A DNA stretch of 64,000 nt from Promethearchaeota archaeon (GCA_019057795.1 JAHLWS010000080.1:59172-123171); one strand, 5' to 3'; counted from the first letter of the stretch, positions 52,035 through 64,000 are shown. Made by a program: numbers and translations. The notes: generated from the letters alone by a model not told the origin.

Positions 52035-53267
52035 TTAATAATTCAGTCCCTTAAGTCTATGAACCGTGGTAAATTGGTTTTTCCCGCTGTTTCTTAGATA
52101 ATTCATCGATTCTTCGATTCCTTCTATTGTCAAGTTAAACATAGGGATAAGGCTCGAAATAATCTTCCTCGTCCATGGTACCCACTCTAACCGAATTAAT
52201 TCAGGGTTTAACCAAACAACATTGTTCTTGAAGTGGTTGGCTATTTCTCTAATGTAATAAATTCCGGGCATCTCATTTCTATGGTAATAATAAATCGAAC
52301 CATATCTTTCCGTAAGTTCCCAAGAAGCCATAGCAGCGTCGCCAACGACAACTACTTTGTACTTATTATCGTATTTTTTCAAAAGATCGTCGAAATCTAT
52401 AGCCTCGTCAGAATTTCTCTGAGCATTTAAATAAAGTTGGTCATATACGCAATTATGGAAGTAGTAAAACTTAAAGTCTTTCCAATGTGACATGTTATTA
52501 GCAGCAGAAAAAAGTAAGTTGACAAGATGAGCGTAGGGGGTCATACTTCCTCCAACATCCATAAGAAGGATAAGTTTAACATTGTTTTTCCTTTTTTTCT
52601 CGAAAATAATTTCAATGTCCCCGCCATTTCTAGCAGTTTCATCAATTGTTTTATCAATGTTTAACTCGTCTTGCTTCCCTATCTCTTCCAGTTTTCTTAG
52701 ACGCTTCAATGCGACTTTAATTTGGCGTGTGTCTAAAACGATATCTTTTCTGTAATCGGCAAAGATTCTTTTTTGGGCGATTTGTATCGCCATACGCATA
52801 CCGGATGAGCCACCTACCCTCATACCCATCGGGTTTTGCCCCGAATGACCAAATTGAGAAAAACCTTGAGTTCCAATCCATTGATCTCCGAAATTATGCT
52901 CCTCATCCTGTTTTTTAAGTAATTCTTCGAAATGTTTTTGTAATTCTTCGATATCAAAATGTTGGTTAAGAAATTCTTGAAATCCGTCAGGTAATTCTGG
53001 AGGATTAAAATCTTTTTGAAGCCAATCCCATATTTCTTGTTTGATTTCTTCTGGGAACTTTAAAGAAGCGTTTTTGAAAAAGTTAGCAAACGCAATATCG
53101 TAAATGTCAAAGTGATGTTCGTTCTTACATAATATAGATCTTGAAATATAGTAGAACTCGACCATGTTATGGATAAGTCCCTTTTCAAGGGCTTCCATAA
53201 GGGTCATATACTCCGTAATACTAACCGGTAACCTTTCTTTTAGGTAATAAAAATACTCAACAAACAT
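52035..53267 (-). CDS. VWA-domain (CoxE-like) protein, MoxR partner
   Basis: LMDVGGSM MIDAS-like motif, YFHNC.Y, VGDA.M, WLNP. Confidence 0.88.
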   Translation of the reverse strand: MFVEYFYYLKERLPVSITEYMTLMEALEKGLIHNMVEFYYISRSILCKNEHHFDIYDIAFANFFKNASLKFPEEIKQEIWDWLQKDFNPPELPDGFQEFLNQHFDIEELQKHFEELLKKQDEEHNFGDQWIGTQGFSQFGHSGQNPMGMRVGGSSGMRMAIQIAQKRIFADYRKDIVLDTRQIKVALKRLRKLEEIGKQDELNIDKTIDETARNGGDIEIIFEKKRKNNVKLILLMDVGGSMTPYAHLVNLLFSAANNMSHWKDFKFYYFHNCVYDQLYLNAQRNSDEAIDFDDLLKKYDNKYKVVVVGDAAMASWELTERYGSIYYYHRNEMPGIYYIREIANHFKNNVVWLNPELIRLEWVPWTRKIISSLIPMFNLTIEGIEESMNYLRNSGKNQFTTVHRLKGLNY

Positions 53268-53302
53268 TTATTTAATCCTATAACCAAATAATTTAAAATT
53301 GA

Positions 53303-54157
53303 TCATGTAGGGAACTTAACTTTTTCTAAGGCTATTTCGAGATCTTTTTCTTTTTTAAGGAGCACTCCAAGGAATGGTATTCCATGCTTCAGTTCGTCTA
53401 AGCTTATTCCACTTTTCAATAAGACACCGATCCAATCCAGAAGTTCAGATGTCGAGGGCATTTTCCTTAGTTTTGTGATCGCTCTTAGCGCATAGAAATT
53501 TTTAAGGCACTGGTCTAAAAGGTTTTGTTTCAGATGTGGATAGTGAAGATTACAGATGTCTGCCATAAATTCTTTTGAAGGAAATTCTATCCAATGAAAC
53601 ACACATCTGCGTAAGAACGCGTCAGGAAGCTCTTTTTCATTATTTGAAGTAATAATAACTATAGGTCGAGTTTTAGCTTTAACAAATTCTTTGGTTTCTT
53701 TAACGTAAAATTCCATTACATCTAATTCTTGTAAAAGATCGTTTGGAAACTCGATATCTGCCTTATCGATCTCGTCGATAAGAAGAACGACTTGTTCCTC
53801 AGAGTCAAAAGCTTCCCCTAGCGGTCCATACATAATATAATCTTTAATATTGTTTACATTACGATCGTCGCTTCCAAATCGACTATCGTTTAATCTTTGG
53901 ACGGTATCGTACATGTAGCACCCATCGATTGCTTCCGTTGTGCTTTTTACATTCCATACGATTAATCGTTTTCCTAAAGATTCGGCAATAGCGTGAGATA
54001 ACAAAGTTTTTCCTGTACCGGGCTCACCCTTTACCAGTAATGGTCGAGCTAAGGCAATTGAAACGTTAACGATGTTTCTTAGTTGAGGATCAGCAATATA
54101 TTTGATCCTTTCAGTATTAACATCTCCTTTAAATTGATCAAATCCAGTATTACTCAT
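53303..54157 (-). CDS. MoxR-like AAA+ ATPase
   Basis: GEPGTGKT, LLIDEIDKAD..FPNDLL, TSN.EKELPDAFLRRC. Confidence 0.92.
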   Translation of the reverse strand: MSNTGFDQFKGDVNTERIKYIADPQLRNIVNVSIALARPLLVKGEPGTGKTLLSHAIAESLGKRLIVWNVKSTTEAIDGCYMYDTVQRLNDSRFGSDDRNVNNIKDYIMYGPLGEAFDSEEQVVLLIDEIDKADIEFPNDLLQELDVMEFYVKETKEFVKAKTRPIVIITSNNEKELPDAFLRRCVFHWIEFPSKEFMADICNLHYPHLKQNLLDQCLKNFYALRAITKLRKMPSTSELLDWIGVLLKSGISLDELKHGIPFLGVLLKKEKDLEIALEKVKFPT

Positions 54158-54337: not shown

Positions 54338-55672
54338 TTGAACAACCATAGCCTGAAGGCTATGGATTCGTAGGTTAGACTTTCAACACTACTGGATGGT
54401 TCAAGTATCCTCTATCCCCTATCCACTTGGATTTAGGGACTCCTTTTTGTAGAATGTTTCTTGAAGCGTTCACATCGGCGTTTAGAACAACCCCGCAATC
54501 TTTACAAATGTATAGTCCACGATACTTGCGATTTGACTTACGTACGACTCCACACGAAGAGCACGTTTGCGAAGTGTACTCTTCACCGGTTCTAATTACT
54601 TGAATTCCGACCATCTCAGATTTATATTCAATTTGTTGGACAAGTTTTAAAAACGGCGCGGAGACAAAGTTCTGGTTGTTTCTCTTCCCTATCGCGATCT
54701 TTTGCTTCCAACCTTCGTTATACCCGATGACAATCGTTCCAATATCGTTAGAAATGCAGTAATTGACTATTCTTCGAGATGTCTTATGAAAGAAATCTCT
54801 CATCTTGTTGTTTCGCTTTCGATGGAGCCTCAAGATGCGTCCTGTGACGTCCGTATCGTTGTATTTTTTCGCCATGGACTTGTATTTTGACAGTTGCTTG
54901 TTATAGAATTGATTGATCGACTTAACAACACCGCCTTTGATAATCAATGGCTTGTTTCCAACGTTATCTGACGCAGCTACGATGTTATTAAGTCCTAAAT
55001 CGATTCCCAAAGCGTTATTCTCGTTCAAGTGCAAGTCTTTTGGCTCGTAATCGTAGATTAATTCAATATTGTATCGATCTCCGAAAGGAACGATGCGAAC
55101 GCCTCTTACGCTTTTTAACGCGGTTTTTATTTTAGGAAAATCTAAGTTCTCCATCTTTTGCGTGAGTAGTACGTGCCCATTCTTTAGCCTACATTGTAAG
55201 GAAGTGAAATAGACTAAATTATGGCCGTTCTTACGCTTGTAACGAGGAAGCTTAGGTCTACCCTTAAATTTTAACCGTTCGCTTTTCCAAACCTTAATCG
55301 CTTTAAAGAAACTCTTGAAATTTCTATCTACTTGTTTTAATACTTGCTGTGGTGGATGAGAACCACACTTTTCCTGTAGTTTTTTATACGATTCGTGAGT
55401 TCTTAATAATTTCCATAACTCGTTATACCGAATCCAATGGCGATCCTTGAAAAACCTCTGTCGCACGGTATAGGTCGCTACATTGAACAAGTTCTTTGAA
55501 AGAAAAGTAATTTCGTCCAATAATTTTGAGCGTTTTAACTGAATTTGTTGAACGAGTTGCATTAATTATAACATTGAGTAATTCTTATTTAAAGAAATAG
55601 GGGTAGGATTATTAATTATTTACGCAAAATTCATCACATCCCTAAAGGAATGCGTTTTCTTTTGTTGAATTG
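54338..55672 (-). mobile_element. IS200/IS605-family non-autonomous element (tnpB only)
   Basis: Right end (minus strand): GAAT-CCATAGCC-TTCA-GGCTATGG-TTGT-TCAA. Left end: TTTTAT|CAATTCAACAAAAGAAAAC then hairpin GCATTCC-TTTA-GGGATGT. No tnpA. Confidence 0.8.
54375..55562 (-). CDS. tnpB: RNA-guided endonuclease TnpB
   Basis: GIDLG (RuvC-I), E.YTSQTCSSCG...C..CG zinc finger, NADVNA (RuvC-III). Confidence 0.95.
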   Translation of the reverse strand: MQLVQQIQLKRSKLLDEITFLSKNLFNVATYTVRQRFFKDRHWIRYNELWKLLRTHESYKKLQEKCGSHPPQQVLKQVDRNFKSFFKAIKVWKSERLKFKGRPKLPRYKRKNGHNLVYFTSLQCRLKNGHVLLTQKMENLDFPKIKTALKSVRGVRIVPFGDRYNIELIYDYEPKDLHLNENNALGIDLGLNNIVAASDNVGNKPLIIKGGVVKSINQFYNKQLSKYKSMAKKYNDTDVTGRILRLHRKRNNKMRDFFHKTSRRIVNYCISNDIGTIVIGYNEGWKQKIAIGKRNNQNFVSAPFLKLVQQIEYKSEMVGIQVIRTGEEYTSQTCSSCGVVRKSNRKYRGLYICKDCGVVLNADVNASRNILQKGVPKSKWIGDRGYLNHPVVLKV

Positions 55673-56883: not shown

Positions 56884-57987
56884 ATGCCAAGCATTACTTC
56901 TCTAATATCTCAAAGAATTAAACCCTCTTGCGCTGTATGGGAAATTACATTAAAATGTAATAGTAATTGCATTCATTGTGGATCAAAAGCAGGAAAAACT
57001 CGTCTTGATGAACTGAATACCGAAGAATCTTTAAAATTAGTGAGGGAAATCCGTGATTGTGGTTATAAAGGAGTTGCTTTAATGGGAGGAGAACCATTAA
57101 TTAGAGAAGATTGGTACGAAATTGCCAGAGAAATTAAAAAAAATAAGCTAGAATTATCAATTGTTACTAACGGATTAACTTTAATTGATAACATTCAAAA
57201 ATTAAAAAGCCTAAAAGTTGACTGCGTATCGCTAAGTTTAGATGGAGGGTCGGCTAAAGTTCACGATTATCTTAGAGGTATTCCAGGAGCATTTGAAAAA
57301 ACATTAAATGCGATTAACAGGTTAAAAGAAGAAAAATTACCAGTCAGTGTTATTACAGCAGTAAGTAAAACTAATTTAAATGAACTAGATAAGATAAAAA
57401 AAATCTTATTAGATCGAAATATTGCTTGGCAAATCCAGATAGCAATCCCTATTGGACGCTTTCCAAGAGAATTAACGATTTCGAGAGAGGAATTTTACAC
57501 TGTAGCATTATTCATTGCTATAAATGTTAAAAAGTATTCTTATAAAAGATTGCCAGTTATTGGTGCCCATTGTTTCGGCCATTTTTCAAGGTTTGTACCA
57601 AATTTAGGGTTGGATCCATGGGTGGGATGCCAAGCGGGAAAATCAGTTTTAGGCATTCAGAGTAATGGAAATATTAAAGGATGTTTAACGCTCCCAGATG
57701 GATTTATCGAAGGAAATATTAGAATGCAGAGTTTGAAAACGATTTTAGAAAAGATAAGGTTGAAACAAAAACAGTTAAAAGGTTATTGTGTTGATTGTGA
57801 TTTGGCAAAATTATGTCGGGGAGGATGTTTGGGAACAGCCATAGCATTAAAAGAATTTGATGAGCCTTATTGTCTAAGAGCAATCGAAAATAAATTATTT
57901 TCATCGAAACAATTACCAATTAAAGGGAAATTGGATTCAACAATTTCAATATTAAAAAATATGTATCATAACTTAATATTCAAATAA
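56884..57987 (+). CDS. Radical SAM/SPASM domain protein (putative peptide maturase)
   Basis: WEITLKCNSNCIHCGS, GGEPL; SPASM cysteines CQAG...GNIKGC and CVDCDLAKLCRGGC...YC. Confidence 0.92.
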   Translation: MPSITSLISQRIKPSCAVWEITLKCNSNCIHCGSKAGKTRLDELNTEESLKLVREIRDCGYKGVALMGGEPLIREDWYEIAREIKKNKLELSIVTNGLTLIDNIQKLKSLKVDCVSLSLDGGSAKVHDYLRGIPGAFEKTLNAINRLKEEKLPVSVITAVSKTNLNELDKIKKILLDRNIAWQIQIAIPIGRFPRELTISREEFYTVALFIAINVKKYSYKRLPVIGAHCFGHFSRFVPNLGLDPWVGCQAGKSVLGIQSNGNIKGCLTLPDGFIEGNIRMQSLKTILEKIRLKQKQLKGYCVDCDLAKLCRGGCLGTAIALKEFDEPYCLRAIENKLFSSKQLPIKGKLDSTISILKNMYHNLIFK

Positions 57988-58021: not shown

Positions 58022-58270
58022 TTGTTAGGAAATTTTTTTCAATTATATAAAATCGGTAAAGAGTTAGGATTAAATAAGAAAGAAATTAATAGAATCTTTT
58101 TATTTGATGATAGCAGAAATCCATTGTTTTTCAAAATCCTAATGATAATCATATTTATTTTTTTGGGAGTTTTCGTTATTATATTAGGAATTGAAGCCTC
58201 AAGACATATTTATCCTGCTGGAACATTATATTCTACTGTAAAAATAAAGGATTTTAAAGCTAAAAAATGA
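58022..58270 (+). CDS. 82-aa single-TM peptide, paralog 1 (putative RiPP precursor)
   Basis: QL.KIGKELGL.KKE.N leader, TM, C-terminal YPAGTLYSTVKIKDF; GGAGG SD. Confidence 0.8.
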   Translation: MLGNFFQLYKIGKELGLNKKEINRIFLFDDSRNPLFFKILMIIIFIFLGVFVIILGIEASRHIYPAGTLYSTVKIKDFKAKK

Positions 58271-58307
58271 AGATATAAAATTCAAATAAGGAGGGATTAT
58301 TTAGAAA

Positions 58308-58556
58308 ATGATGAAAGATATAATTCAGCTCTTTAAAATCGGTAAAGAGTTAGGATTAAATAAGAAAGAAATAAATAAAGTACTAATATTTGACAATAGT
58401 AAGGTTACTTTATTATACAAAAGCCTATTGATAATATCATTTATTTTTTTTGGTATCATAATAATAATATTAGGAATAGAAGCCTCTAGAAATACTTATG
58501 CAGCAGGGAGTTACTATTCTACTATTAGAATAAAAGATTTCAACGAAAGAAAGTAA
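58308..58556 (+). CDS. 82-aa single-TM peptide, paralog 2 (putative RiPP precursor)
   Basis: Same architecture; YAAGSYYSTIRIKDF; GGAGG SD. Confidence 0.8.
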   Translation: MMKDIIQLFKIGKELGLNKKEINKVLIFDNSKVTLLYKSLLIISFIFFGIIIIILGIEASRNTYAAGSYYSTIRIKDFNERK

Positions 58557-58654
58557 ATTCAACAATTTTTTCTTAAAGAAATCATGAAATTTTAATCTGA
58601 TGGTAAAAATGTAAAAATTAAATTAACTTCAAAATTTGAGTGATTATTGAGAAA

Positions 58655-58903
58655 ATGATGAAAGATTTGATTCAACTACATAAAATCGGGAAAGAACTAG
58701 GATTATCTAAAAAAGAAGTAAACAAAGTTTTATTCTATGATAATTCTAAGAATAGCGTCATATTACTGATTATTTTAATTATAATTTTCTCTATTGTGGG
58801 CTATTTTATTGGATTATTTATTGAATCGGTAATAAGCAACACTTATCCTAGCGGAACAAAATATTCAACTGTAAAAATAAAAGACTTTGATAAAAAAAAA
58901 TGA
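58655..58903 (+). CDS. 82-aa single-TM peptide, paralog 3 (putative RiPP precursor)
   Basis: Start moved to ATG 58655 (MMKD, as in paralog 2); YPSGTKYSTVKIKDF. Confidence 0.8.
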   Translation: MMKDLIQLHKIGKELGLSKKEVNKVLFYDNSKNSVILLIILIIIFSIVGYFIGLFIESVISNTYPSGTKYSTVKIKDFDKKK

Positions 58904-60243
58904 AGCTTAATATTGGTTGCGGAAAAAAATACGATCCTGATTATTGTAATATTGATTTGTATGAAGATTTAGTGGCTGATAGATTGATGTCAGCTTTTAA
59001 CCTTGAATTTGATGACAATACTTGCGATGAAATTAAAGCGATTCACATAATTGAACACTTAAGTTTTTTTGAAACTATTTATGCTCTTAGTGAATTTTTT
59101 AGAGTATTAGAACCTCATGGGAAATTAATCCTTGAAACTCCTGATCTTAAGAAAACTTGTCAGCATTATTTAAAAGCAAACGGAGAACAGAAAAAAGAAA
59201 TATTGGGATGGTTTTTTGGAATACCTCATAAAGGATTACAGCACAAGATTTGTTTTCCTCCTTACTTATTAAGAGAACTATTATCCAATGCGGGGTTTAA
59301 AAATATTTCCACAGTATTCTATTATAACAATGAATCTATTCCTTCTGTTAGATTTAAGTGCTATAAACTTGATGAGGGTTATTCTCTTAAAATTTTTCAA
59401 ATTATAACAAAAATCCGAAAGACGATGCTCGTTAAGAATTATATTGATTTTACAGATTCGTTTATTATAAAAGAGCAAGAGGATTTAATAGCAAAATTTG
59501 CGCTAGAATTATTAAAATTAGAGAAAAACGATAAAAAAGAAAAAATCTTTGAAATATTAACTGATATTTCAATAAAGTCGCCTAAATTCACTAAATTCTT
59601 TTTAGAAGCAATCGAAAATAAAGATCTTCTTTCCGAGAAAGAAATAAAATTTATTCTTAAGACAGCTGAATTATTAATTGATTTGAATTTTCCTAATATT
59701 TTATTAAATTCTTTGAAAAAAGGACCACTTAAACCAGGAACCCAAAAAATTATTTTTTCTTCAATTGAATCGTTTGCTAAAAGTATTATAACGAAATTAA
59801 ATCAATTCGAAAAAGATCGGGACAAAATCACAGAAAAATTAAAAGATTTATCTGAACCTATTAAGGAAATTGAAATCAACTTTTTTTCTTACAACTTAAT
59901 TGAACAAAAATCGTTGGACTATTACTACAAAGGGATAAAAGCTTTTTACATAAAAAATTACAAGACAGCTCATAATAAATTTTTAGAAGCTATACGATTA
60001 TATAGGGACGATTTATTTTATTATTGGAATCTAGCGAAAGTTTTAACTAAATTAGAATTAGAAGATCAAGCGATAAAATTCTATAAATTAACATTGAGAT
60101 TTTTAAGGTTAAAAAAGATTCAATATAAAGACGAGATTAAACTTGATATTAAAAAAGAATTACACTGGGTAAGAAGTAAGCAAGGACCAACCCCTAAATT
60201 TGAACCCATAATCTCAATTGAAAAATATCGCAAGATTAATTAA
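58900..60243 (+). CDS. Class I SAM-dependent methyltransferase with C-terminal TPR-like region
   Basis: LNIGCG motif I, H..EH, RVLEP.G.L.LE.PD; C-terminal 'YYKGI......YK.A...F.EAI...D...YY.NLA..L..L....AI.FY'; ATGA overlap with paralog 3. Confidence 0.85.
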   Translation: MKLNIGCGKKYDPDYCNIDLYEDLVADRLMSAFNLEFDDNTCDEIKAIHIIEHLSFFETIYALSEFFRVLEPHGKLILETPDLKKTCQHYLKANGEQKKEILGWFFGIPHKGLQHKICFPPYLLRELLSNAGFKNISTVFYYNNESIPSVRFKCYKLDEGYSLKIFQIITKIRKTMLVKNYIDFTDSFIIKEQEDLIAKFALELLKLEKNDKKEKIFEILTDISIKSPKFTKFFLEAIENKDLLSEKEIKFILKTAELLIDLNFPNILLNSLKKGPLKPGTQKIIFSSIESFAKSIITKLNQFEKDRDKITEKLKDLSEPIKEIEINFFSYNLIEQKSLDYYYKGIKAFYIKNYKTAHNKFLEAIRLYRDDLFYYWNLAKVLTKLELEDQAIKFYKLTLRFLRLKKIQYKDEIKLDIKKELHWVRSKQGPTPKFEPIISIEKYRKIN

Positions 60244-60393: not shown

Positions 60394-61212
60394 TTAAAAT
60401 TCTTTTCTTTTAAGGGTTAAGAACGTTAATAACAAAAATAACAATGTATATAGTATCATAATTAAAATCCCCACTTCAATTGTTGGTGTAAGCCATCTTT
60501 TTACGGGAGGAAGGGTTTCGTCTGCGTAAGGCACCCAAACCCACCGTTCACCACCAAGCAACCCCCCTGGAATCATATGATTTATTAAATTTCCTACGTA
60601 AGATAAAGAAAAAATCGGTTCTATCTCTTGATTTATTGCGGTTAGTGTTTGCTCAAGAAGGGGAAATCCAATAAGAAATAATAAAATTACTATAATCGTT
60701 GTAAAATTTACTGTGGGCATTATGGAACTAAAAAATAATATTAAAACGCTTAGAGTAATTGCATATATTATAGCTATTCCAAGAGAAAGATACGATTCTG
60801 GGATTATAGTGTTATAAACAACCATTGAGGAGAAATTCATCGTTAAATAATAAATAATCACTAAAAGAATAATTATATTTAAATTAGCAACAAATTTTCC
60901 TAAGAATAATTTATATTTGTTAATTTTTGGAAACATGATATACCCCGTTTTCTTACTGAATTCTGAGCAAACAGTATCAGAGAAAAAGAAGCACGAAACG
61001 AATATAAGGAAAAATCTAAAATAGTCAATACCTTTTCGATAATAATTACCCTCATCAAAATGATAAGGATAAAAGAACGAAAATAAAAGGGCAAATAATA
61101 CAGTCGTAATATAAAAGAATAAAACCCTTTTCCATCGCAACCTAAATTCCAAAAAATAAGTTCTTAGGATTGGATTAAAAACTCCTTTATTATTTACTAT
61201 TTTTTTATTCAT
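60394..61212 (-). CDS. ABC-2 type transporter permease
   Basis: Six TM, 'D....EF.K.TG....P.I....LF.GK', C-terminal KRKE. Confidence 0.85.
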   Translation of the reverse strand: MNKKIVNNKGVFNPILRTYFLEFRLRWKRVLFFYITTVLFALLFSFFYPYHFDEGNYYRKGIDYFRFFLIFVSCFFFSDTVCSEFSKKTGYIMFPKINKYKLFLGKFVANLNIIILLVIIYYLTMNFSSMVVYNTIIPESYLSLGIAIIYAITLSVLILFFSSIMPTVNFTTIIVILLFLIGFPLLEQTLTAINQEIEPIFSLSYVGNLINHMIPGGLLGGERWVWVPYADETLPPVKRWLTPTIEVGILIMILYTLLFLLLTFLTLKRKEF

Positions 61213-61241: not shown

Positions 61242-62243
61242 TTATTTAATCTTTTCTAAGTATAATTTCTCTAAAAGAGATGTTTTCGATTGTGAAAACG
61301 ATATTATTGTAAAATCTGAAGCAAAATCTTTACCTAAAATTTTAAAAATTTCCCCTTTCGATTCTGGGTTCCCGTCATAAAATATAACAAGTTCCTTGAT
61401 TGAGGGTTGGTATTGAACGGGTGATTTAAATATTATAGGATCTAAATTTTTATCCAAATACAACGCTAATTTTTCATTAAGTTTATTTATTACAAATTCA
61501 AGCTTTTCTAGAGGAATTGGATTGAGAAGTTGACAAATGATTTCATTTGTTTTTAATAATTTCTCCATATTTTCGATTCGATCAAATTTAATAATTTCTC
61601 CGTTGTTGATAAACGCAATTTTATCGCAAACTTCTGATATCTCACGTAGCATATGCGATGCTATAAAGATCGTTTTATTTTGTTCTTTGAAGGTTTTTAA
61701 ATATTGTCTAATTTTTATTCTAGCTTTTGGATCTAATCCTGTTTGAGGTTCGTCTAAGAAAATAATCTCCGGATCGTGAAAAATGGCTTGAATAAATCCC
61801 AGTTTTTGCTTCATGCCCTTTGAAAAAGTTTTAATTCTTTTTTTTTTCCAATTAATTAAATTAAAATGAGAAAGTAATTCATCGATTCGTTGATTTATTT
61901 TTTCTTTAGGATAGTTGTGAAGTTTAGCGTAATGTTTTAATAAAACATTAGGATTTGAATCGTAGAATACGGGAATATCGATTAAAAAGCCCATTGAGAT
62001 TAGGTCTTGCGAATTTACGCTTATATCTTGTAGAATATTCCTATTATTTTTTATTGAGATATTACCGGTAGTGGGTCTTAATAGTTTTGCAATAAGTTTT
62101 ATAGTTGTTGTTTTGCCCGCCCCATTTGGACCGACAAACCCAATGGTTTCTCCTTTGTGAACTTCAAGATTTAAATTTTTTACTGCAAAATTTTTTCCAA
62201 ACTTTTTGCTTAGATTATTTGTCTTTAGTATTATCTCAGTCAA
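61242..62243 (-). CDS. ABC transporter ATP-binding protein
   Basis: GPNGAGKTT, FSKGMKQK, LDEP.TGLDP, ASH. Confidence 0.95.
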   Translation of the reverse strand: MTEIILKTNNLSKKFGKNFAVKNLNLEVHKGETIGFVGPNGAGKTTTIKLIAKLLRPTTGNISIKNNRNILQDISVNSQDLISMGFLIDIPVFYDSNPNVLLKHYAKLHNYPKEKINQRIDELLSHFNLINWKKKRIKTFSKGMKQKLGFIQAIFHDPEIIFLDEPQTGLDPKARIKIRQYLKTFKEQNKTIFIASHMLREISEVCDKIAFINNGEIIKFDRIENMEKLLKTNEIICQLLNPIPLEKLEFVINKLNEKLALYLDKNLDPIIFKSPVQYQPSIKELVIFYDGNPESKGEIFKILGKDFASDFTIISFSQSKTSLLEKLYLEKIK

Positions 62244-63722: not shown

Positions 63723-64000
63723 TTATAATTCTTTTCTTTTTAAGGCTAAGATCGTAAATAGAAAAAACAATGATGCATAAATTATCATCATCAAAATCCC
63801 AACCTCAATTGTTGGTGTACGCCAATGTTTTACAGGAGGAAGGGTTCCACTTGAGTAATGAATCCAAGACCACCGATCACCACCAAGCAACCCACCTGGA
63901 ATGATATGATTTATTAAATTTCCTACGTAAGATAAAGAAAAAATCGGTTCTATCTCTTGATTTATTGCGGTTAGTGTTTGCTCAAGAAGGGGAAATCCAA
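63723..64000 (-). CDS. ABC-2 permease paralog (3' end only)
   Basis: Nearly identical in part to 60394..61212; ends ...ALKRKEL*. Confidence 0.85.
   Translation of the reverse strand, partial: GFPLLEQTLTAINQEIEPIFSLSYVGNLINHIIPGGLLGGDRWSWIHYSSGTLPPVKHWRTPTIEVGILMMIIYASLFFLFTILALKRKEL

Follow-up and report, generated by a model that had tools for sequence, protein, structure and literature searches.

Spliceases are radical SAM (rSAM) enzymes that cut out a tyramine unit from a peptide at an X-Tyr-Gly motif (PMC11414181, PMC11626197), and the native products of backbone splicing are still elusive (PMC9811515). Type I spliceotides, represented by PlpX/PlpY/PlpA of Pleurocapsa (PMC5995677, PMC11002830), combine a SPASM rSAM with several precursor paralogs per cluster and need the PqqD-like protein PlpY and Nif11/NHLP leaders; PlpX, the founding tyramine splicease and a member of IPR026482 (PMC11002830), works on Nif11-type precursors (PMC11002830, PMC5995677). 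Binary (type II) spliceotides, such as RhaX/RhaA, RcsX/RcsA and RasX/RasA (Rheinheimera; PMC11414181, PMC11626197), have short precursors beside an RRE-less rSAM/SPASM enzyme. Their helical leader binds the enzyme directly, with the leader helix at the enzyme site instead of an RRE (PMC11414181), and the enzyme acts on a Tyr within a short, conserved core. The GDL-motif maturases (TIGR03913) are also paired with short peptides. A splice leaves an alpha-keto-beta-amino amide and removes C8H9NO (135.07 Da) from the peptide. To our knowledge, Tyr-Gly is the site of all characterized spliceases, and a RiPP-type precursor with a transmembrane (TM) helix between leader and core is not a described design.

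Here we analyse a stretch of 64,000 nucleotides from Promethearchaeota archaeon (GCA_019057795.1, JAHLWS010000080.1:59172-123171; hereafter the window), in which three small peptide genes lie between an rSAM/SPASM gene and a gene for a methyltransferase-TPR fusion (MT-TPR) (Table 1). The system shares with type I spliceotides the SPASM rSAM and the several precursor paralogs, but it has no Y protein and no Nif11 leader. With the binary systems it shares an RRE-less enzyme beside short precursors, a leader that is likewise predicted to be helical and, in relatives, the X-Tyr-Gly motif; it differs from them in being archaeal, in carrying Tyr-Ser rather than Tyr-Gly, in the TM helix between leader and core, in a second invariant Tyr six residues upstream and in a conserved MT-TPR partner. 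On balance we think it probable, if narrowly so, that the three ORFs are precursors of the adjacent rSAM, each built from a helical leader, a TM helix and a core, with an anchored, modified tail as the product. With a helix in this position, the peptide would have to be modified before it enters the membrane, and its product would stay tethered. As the nearest relative of the tyramine spliceases, outside bacteria and with a Tyr-Ser site, the enzyme clade could also widen the known scope of backbone splicing.

Table 1. Features of the cassette and its convergent neighbours (window coordinates)
Feature	Position	Strand	Remarks
Radical SAM/SPASM gene	56884..57987	+	367 aa; 5' of the three peptide ORFs
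Paralog 1	58022..58270	+	82 aa, TTG start
Paralog 1, leader	58022-58135	+	Residues 1-38
Paralog 1, hydrophobic helix	58136-58192	+	Residues 39-57
Paralog 1, junction		+	Residues 58-63
Paralog 1, core unit	58211-58255	+	Residues Y64-F78
Paralog 1, basic tail		+	Residues 79-82
Paralog 2	58308..58556	+	82 aa, ATG start; layout as paralog 1
Paralog 2, core unit	58497-58541	+	
Paralog 3	58655..58903	+	82 aa from ATG 58655
Paralog 3, core unit	58844-58888	+	
Methyltransferase-TPR fusion (MT-TPR)	58900..60243	+	447 aa; Pfam and AF2
ABC-2 permease	60394-61212	-	Convergent neighbour, outside the conserved core
ABC ATPase	61242-62243	-	Convergent neighbour, outside the conserved core

The peptide genes and their family

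ORF calls and ortholog starts agree on a length of 82 residues for all three peptides, as a reading made from the sequence alone had proposed. Orthologs of paralog 1 open with ATG at the codon where paralog 1 has TTG. The longest frame of paralog 3 runs from GTG 58640; we place its start at the ATG at 58655 because orthologs begin at the same Met-Met-Lys-Asp, the residues 5' of that point vary and some ortholog loci have a stop codon just 5' of it. The TGA of paralog 3 overlaps the ATG of MT-TPR (ATGA, 58900-58903). The paralogs align without gaps at 49-60% overall identity, with 67-83% in the N-terminal motif (residues 10-27), 32-63% in the hydrophobic segment (residues 39-57) and 60-87% in the tail unit (residues 64-78). 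The second Tyr is found as L-Y-S, Y-Y-S and K-Y-S in the three paralogs, and the first as Y-P or Y-A. An AF2 model of paralog 2 has helices at residues 2-14, 19-29 and 31-63, followed by a coil tail (residues 64-82, pLDDT ~58-64).

A word-index search recovered 105 proteins of 49-104 aa, with E values down to 6e-40; all are unnamed, and those with a stated source belong to MAGs of Promethearchaeota, Lokiarchaeota or Hermodarchaeota. Other genomes contain separate orthologs of each of the three paralogs, and the triplication is therefore old. In a profile search against 1.84 billion representatives, no more than 55 proteins matched. Within the phylum, 67 of 400 genomes have a match; these fall in the family of the source organism (56 of 134 genomes) and, as weaker matches, in two other families. 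Because the cassette is this common in one Asgard family, its function would bear on Asgard cell-surface biology. The peptides apparently form an archaeal family without a description in curated libraries or searchable papers: Pfam and NCBIfam hold no family for the TM-bearing or the TM-less forms (see below), and the searchable literature gave no archaeal, Asgard or Thermoplasmatota description. The splicease survey of Scott et al. 2022 (Chem), the scope of which a review gives as 189 bacterial genera (PMC10849128), may catalogue the clade.

Across all 66 homologs that were collected without reference to the motif, eight residues never vary (K13, G16, L17, Y64, G67, Y70, S71 and D77). The invariance that had been claimed for the two tyrosines, spaced Y-x5-Y, holds for every full-length homolog, and both residues are also kept in remote homologs, in which Y-x4-Y in P0158 is the sole other spacing seen. 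Distant Asgard peptides are extended at the N-terminus and keep a single TM, and the second Tyr of their tail unit belongs to a Tyr-Gly or Tyr-Ala pair; the 15-residue core unit follows the consensus Y-x2-G-x2-Y-[S/G/A]-[T/S]-[V/I]-x3-D-[F/Y/L]. The residue after the second Tyr is Ser in 180, Gly in 10 and Ala in 3 of the 193 family members, a tally that, like the other family counts given here, overstates independent support because the members share ancestry; by lineage, it is Gly in Thermoplasmatota and distant Asgard peptides, Ala at locus L048 and Ser in the window lineage. A single splice at Y70 would not account for why the first Tyr, Gly67 and Asp77 never vary.

Selection was estimated by segment as pN/pS (Nei-Gojobori, 24 ungapped genes; the 4-codon tail of one paralog type, with zero synonymous differences, was left unscored). 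The values are lowest in the leader motif (0.17-0.25) and the core (0.15-0.28), higher in the TM helix (0.37-0.55) and highest in the linker and junction (up to 0.81-0.85). Like the segment identities, they bear out the proposed pattern of two conserved ends around a more variable helix, yet the helix is also under purifying selection, which by this measure acts on all scorable segments and most strongly on the N-terminal motif and the tail. Judged by homologs with E values to about 1e-40 and by pN/pS below 1 in every scorable segment, the small ORFs are far beyond chance.

Relatives without a membrane helix

The weakest significant profile matches lack the hydrophobic segment and consist of the leader motif, a short polar linker and three to five head-to-tail units of 15 residues. 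A follow-up search found 19 TM-less proteins, some of which have only two core copies (range 2-5). The repeat unit of the TM-less relatives (P0152, P0153, P0156, P0159 and P0161-P0176) follows a Y-x2-G-x2-Y-G-T pattern, as does the TM-bearing tail, and profile-profile comparison aligns the two forms with a probability of 96% (E = 2e-9), leader on leader and last core on core. The TM-less precursors directly adjoin rSAM/SPASM genes with 44-48% full-length identity to the window rSAM, at four loci (L041, L044, L050 and L051) and in two Thermoplasmatota genomes. The gene order in the two Thermoplasmatota MAGs is rSAM, two-core precursor, rSAM, rSAM, three-core precursor. For one single-core Thermoplasmatota peptide (L053), no rSAM ortholog lies less than 8 kb away; its genome carries three tandem rSAM orthologs with two further precursors on another contig, and we no longer treat it as an exception to the rSAM pairing.

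The combination of a shared leader with tandem cores beside orthologous rSAM genes argues that the N-terminus acts as a true leader and the tail as a true core, and that the membrane helix is an optional insert, which speaks for the leader-TM-core design put forward in the sequence-only reading. The arrangement follows RiPP leader-core logic: short ORFs adjoin a modifying enzyme, and a single leader precedes a core that is multiplied two- to fivefold in the TM-less relatives. These soluble multi-core proteins also provide a tractable TM-free form for chemistry in E. coli.

The same observations bear on whether the small proteins could be membrane subunits or regulators, with an HTH-like head and one TM, that merely share an operon with the rSAM and are not its substrates. 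Two to five tandem tail units in the TM-less relatives would be senseless for a regulator, and the presence of one to four copies per cassette and the strict adjacency to one rSAM clade across two phyla also count against such a role. What favours it is the pair of short helices in the AF2 model and a sub-threshold HTH likeness of the N-terminal motif to z-alpha (E = 0.08) and AF1548-like_C (E = 0.05), and of the TM-less relatives to MAD1 HTH and HigA (E about 0.1). All of these matches lie under every curated cut-off, and we rejected the identification of the motif as a known HTH domain. We consider a role as regulator or membrane subunit highly improbable.

A splicease-like radical SAM enzyme

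The window rSAM matches Pfam Radical_SAM (1.5e-27) and SPASM. Its cysteines at positions 25, 29 and 32, and those of the SPASM half at 230, 249, 267, 302, 305, 311, 315 and 330, are invariant in 24 sequences, with the exception of Cys230. Because the CxxxCxxC motif already lies at residues 25-32, the enzyme has no N-terminal RRE, nor room for one, a point that had been made from the sequence alone. The rSAM adjoins the peptides in every Asgard locus with flank and is the only partner that is present in every context; it is unusually constrained, with 95-96% identity to its counterparts in species where MT-TPR has dropped to about 59%.

Among NCBIfam families, the window rSAM scores best on TIGR04103 (202 bits, cut-off 725), the nif11-class maturase 3 family, which we take to correspond to IPR026482, and second best on TIGR03913 (176 bits, cut-off 592). 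All clade members tested score best on one or other of these two families, at about 176-241 bits and far under the cut-offs; clade relatives reach 199-223 bits on TIGR04103, and TIGR03913 is the best match for some members. These scores place the enzyme in a sister clade of the PlpX family, outside it. The X-Tyr-Gly splice motif is missing from all three window peptides and is found in Thermoplasmatota and distant Asgard relatives. The window system is thus splicease-like, but both the family score and the motif set it apart from known spliceases, and its chemistry may differ from theirs.

One alternative is that the rSAM is not a splicease and builds a cross-link or a cofactor-like structure that includes both tyrosines and Gly67, for example a Tyr-derived macrocycle or a PQQ/mycofactocin-like redox group. 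Such a product would suit the Tyr pair of fixed spacing and the invariant Gly and Asp, neither of which is required for a single splice, as well as scores far under the splicease cut-off and the replacement of Tyr-Gly by Tyr-Ser in the window lineage. Core and leader are conserved to the same degree, in keeping with a fixed structure rather than a diversifying antibiotic. MftC and PqqE are indeed among the significant rSAM matches, but they trail the PlpX-type and GDL-peptide families by 80-130 bits; moreover, relatives have X-Tyr-Gly exactly at the second Tyr, and precursors with tandem cores usually give excised or multi-site peptides rather than a single cofactor. We regard this chemistry as possible, if unlikely.

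The features that resemble the binary systems are the lack of room for an RRE in the rSAM, the lack of an RRE in MT-TPR (see below) and the predicted helical leader. A prediction of the rSAM in complex with peptide 2 adds weak support, with a score of 0.45 against 0.00 for the best control (at least 45% contact agreement and a partner pLDDT of at least 56 in the runs); on a calibration that is only rough here, with custom alignments and ligands included, 58 of 80 solved complexes passed the mark, as did 2 of 110 mismatched pairs, and scores that pass at 0.60 or below include 7 of the 80 solved complexes and both of the passing mismatches.

The methyltransferase-TPR partner

The MT-TPR protein matches Pfam Methyltransf_11 and, weakly, TPR_2. 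In its AF2 model (pLDDT 89), residues 1-156 adopt a class I SAM methyltransferase fold and residues 161-443 are all-helical, with a three-repeat TPR at about 331-430. There are no beta strands past residue 156, which rules out an RRE hidden in this protein. In VIA-align comparisons, methyltransferases match residues 1-159 (Z 12-14) and the repeats match the idealized TPR 1na3 (Z 12.7, rmsd 1.7, 85 aligned over 335-428), a Rap regulator (Z 13.1) and the Sgt2 TPR (Z 11.7). Foldseek with the whole model returned generic class I methyltransferases only. A specifically Sgt2-like TPR, for which there is a sequence match (E = 1e-3), was rejected, as in structure it ties with idealized TPR, Rap and STI-1 and is generic.

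All Asgard loci with sufficient flank show the cassette order rSAM (about 367 aa), one to four peptides, MT-TPR (435-448 aa), and the MT-TPR homologs found 3' of the peptides are full length. The distant Asgard families keep the trio, at identities of 46-49% for the rSAM and 28-32% for MT-TPR. At two loci, L041 and L050, MT-TPR is not nearby in the flanks covered; the leader is equally conserved there and the rSAM is always present. The suggestion that the TPR region reads the leader thus finds no evidence in this comparison. A third TM-less cluster, L051, carries an MT-TPR homolog (40% identical over 188 residues), and this rules out a helix chaperone that occurs with TM-bearing precursors only. 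TPRs of this type bind short peptides, and from the model a peptide-binding role of the repeats is plausible, with no pointer to the leader over the tail or the helix.

The membrane helix and the fate of the tail

The uncharged run spans 19, 19 and 24 residues in the window paralogs (family median 22, range 15-38), and it is preceded by an N-region of 38 residues with two predicted helices (AF2) and followed by 25-26 residues (family median 25, range 19-48). When 15 residues are counted on each side, 156 of 193 family members and 12 of 13 distant ones have a more positive N-flank than C-flank. This charge excess predicts an N-in/C-out topology, with a tail-anchored-like geometry and the tail of ~25 residues outside; counted over whole flanks, the bias is ambiguous for paralog 1. 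The strongly basic C-terminal tail of the window lineage (net +3 to +5) disfavours translocation. Tail-anchored proteins (GET/ArsA clients) likewise have a single TM that lies no more than some 30-40 residues from the C-terminus and a predicted cytoplasmic N-part, which for the window peptides follows from the charge rule, and the length of the window peptides would likewise force post-translational insertion. In contrast to these clients, the external tail of the window peptides is long and charged. With leader and core on opposite sides of the membrane, modification would have to precede insertion.

The TM helix ends in I-E-A|S in paralogs 1 and 2 and in I-E-S|V in paralog 3, as had been pointed out, and a hypothetical cut at this point would yield peptides of 23, 23 and 24 residues, whose net charges are +5, +3 and +4. 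The leader and helix could then be one long cleavable signal, which signal peptidase I would cut after I-E-A or I-E-S, once the peptide had been modified and inserted N-in/C-out, to free a modified cationic peptide; this would account for a cluster that lacks a protease. The three paralogs have Ile at -3 and a small residue, Ala or Ser, at -1, and Gly is found at -4 in two of them (paralogs 1 and 2). Like Sec-dependent bacteriocins and cleavable signals, the three paralogs carry a hydrophobic segment that is followed by small -3/-1 residues. The flank charges would orient the tail outwards, the conserved core cassette is without a protease, and 86 of 106 distinct junctions contain some -3/-1-compatible pair between the TM end and the first Tyr, a raw count, uncorrected for chance, from a stretch where small residues are common.

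As a family feature, however, release by signal peptidase lacks support. The stretch from the TM to the first Tyr is the most variable of all (109 distinct 9-mers among 197 non-redundant members) and has the highest pN/pS, up to 0.81. The would-be -1 column is unconserved (A 100, I 27, T 17, V 12, S 9, P 8 and N 7 of 193), with Ile, Val, Thr, Pro or Asn in ~40% of members. Linkers of varying length, rich in Pro, Ser, Thr and Asn, take the place of the site in the other paralog types and among the distant Asgard families; the site is missing from most lineages and is, from these alignments, a local feature without family-wide conservation. The geometry also departs from that of cleaved signals, which typically have an h-region of 7-15 residues and a short basic n-region. 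An uncharged run of 19-24 residues behind a folded N-region of 38 residues speaks for a signal anchor rather than for a cleaved signal. The TM-less relatives, furthermore, are clustered with dedicated CPBP and C14 peptidases, which argues that processing in the family, if there is any, is not based on signal peptidase. In our view, release by signal peptidase is quite unlikely, though cleavage is conceivable within the I-E-A-S-R subgroup and in the window paralogs with their -3/-1-compatible residues.

The statement that the cluster has no protease is correct for the conserved Asgard core cassette, in which we found no protease of any kind and, in particular, no dedicated RiPP-type leader protease or transporter-protease. 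It does not extend to the TM-less clusters, which carry Rce1-like CPBP, C14 and S9-like hydrolases, together with B12-rSAM and flavodoxin genes. The window genome has ten CPBP genes, all of them unlinked and none on the cassette contig.

A proposed model for an anchored product

The gene family, its conservation by segment, the TM-less multi-core relatives, the pairing with the rSAM and the lack of an RRE are results of the analysis. For the reading that we favour, a modified peptide that stays anchored, we infer from them the chemistry and topology, the sequence of steps and what becomes of the tail, as follows. The two leader helices (residues 2-29) would recruit, and probably activate, the RRE-less rSAM directly, as in the binary spliceotide systems. 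In the cytoplasm, the rSAM would modify the disordered 15-residue core, most likely at the second invariant Tyr, which occupies the place of the spliceotide X-Tyr-Gly site (Tyr-Gly in relatives, Tyr-Ser in the window), and the methyltransferase would then add a further modification. The helix would insert post-translationally, N-in/C-out and in a tail-anchored-like manner, and the modified tail of 25 residues would be left exposed at the outer side of the membrane. In this model the product would be the anchored form itself, and any release would be the work of an unlinked protease and not of a conserved signal-peptidase event.

A more specific version of this model is that Asgard archaea splice the Tyr-Ser site, or rewrite it in another way, in the cytoplasm and that, after tail-anchored-like insertion, the resulting reactive ketoamide-type group is displayed, tethered, on the outside of the cell membrane as a protease-blocking or adhesive warhead, the helix having been inserted between the leader and the core in an older, soluble multi-core precursor such as Thermoplasmatota still have. 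We think this version unlikely as it stands.

Neighbouring genes

The convergent ABC gene pair has orthologs in one close relative (L007) only and in none of nine other loci with long flanks (L008, L010, L011, L041 and L045-L049), and we rejected the ABC-2 exporter as a part of the core. An MBL-fold gene upstream was considered as part of the system and is conserved in close relatives only.

Additional cassettes and enzyme paralogs

The cassette is not always a single unit. Several genomes carry a second one directly downstream of the first, encoding a radical SAM (rSAM) paralog that is 67–72% identical and peptides of its own. The evidence comes both from related loci that begin within the end of the methyltransferase–TPR fusion gene (MT-TPR) and from a search of 400 genomes of the phylum. 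In some relatives, MT-TPR is followed by a fourth type of peptide (89 aa) and a 202-aa polytopic membrane protein that matches no Pfam family; neither gene is present in the window.

On Thermoplasmatota contigs and related ones, three paralogous rSAM/SPASM genes (41–48% identity to the enzyme of the window) occur in tandem, interleaved with precursors of 2, 3 and 5 cores, and this arrangement suggests that labour is divided among the paralogs. Mini-ORFs of 28–51 codons adjoin clusters that encode precursors without a transmembrane (TM) helix; each contains one core unit and lacks the leader motif. Such ORFs could encode substrates that need no leader, or could be degenerate copies. One Thermoplasmatota metagenome-assembled genome encodes a soluble family member with a single core, adjoined by the gene for a radical SAM protein that lacks SPASM and is not an ortholog of the rSAM/SPASM enzyme of the window. 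The divided rSAM ortholog of a distant Asgard genome is the result of a frameshift or an assembly error.

Genomic surroundings of the cassette

The ABC-2 permease next to the cassette and a second one at the window's end are nearly identical in their C-terminal parts, a local duplication of the transporter. Upstream of the cassette, at a distance of 1.3 kb, an ORF with a C-terminal Zn-finger looks by eye like an IS200/IS605-type TnpB/OrfB, which would mean that the locus is bordered by mobile DNA. Judged in the same way, a tandem gene pair resembles a MoxR-type AAA/VWA pair.

Features of related loci (L), genomes (G; C, contig) and the window
Feature	Location	Details
Second cassette	L037, L038, L032	Locus opens with MT-TPR end, followed by 372-aa rSAM
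Second cassette	G252, G256, G259, G241	Peptide matches ~3 kb apart
Fourth peptide and membrane protein	L007 9603-10499; L011 3040-3936	
Tandem rSAM/SPASM paralogs, multi-core precursors	L055-L058 (G400:C64, G401:C7); L041 623-9627; L051 7922-13135	
Single-core mini-ORFs	L050 7608-7694 (-); L051 7686-7793 (-); L041 9648-9803 (+)	
Soluble single-core peptide	L053 7022-7213 (+)	
Radical SAM protein	L053 7244-8017 (-)	257 aa
Divided rSAM ortholog	L045 6063-7143 (-)	Two frames
ABC-2 permease	Window 60394-61212 (-)	
Second ABC-2 permease	Window 63723-63998 (-)	At window's end
Putative TnpB/OrfB	Window 54375-55562 (-)	395 aa
Putative MoxR-type AAA/VWA pair	Window 52035-54157 (-)	284-aa ATPase, 410-aa protein
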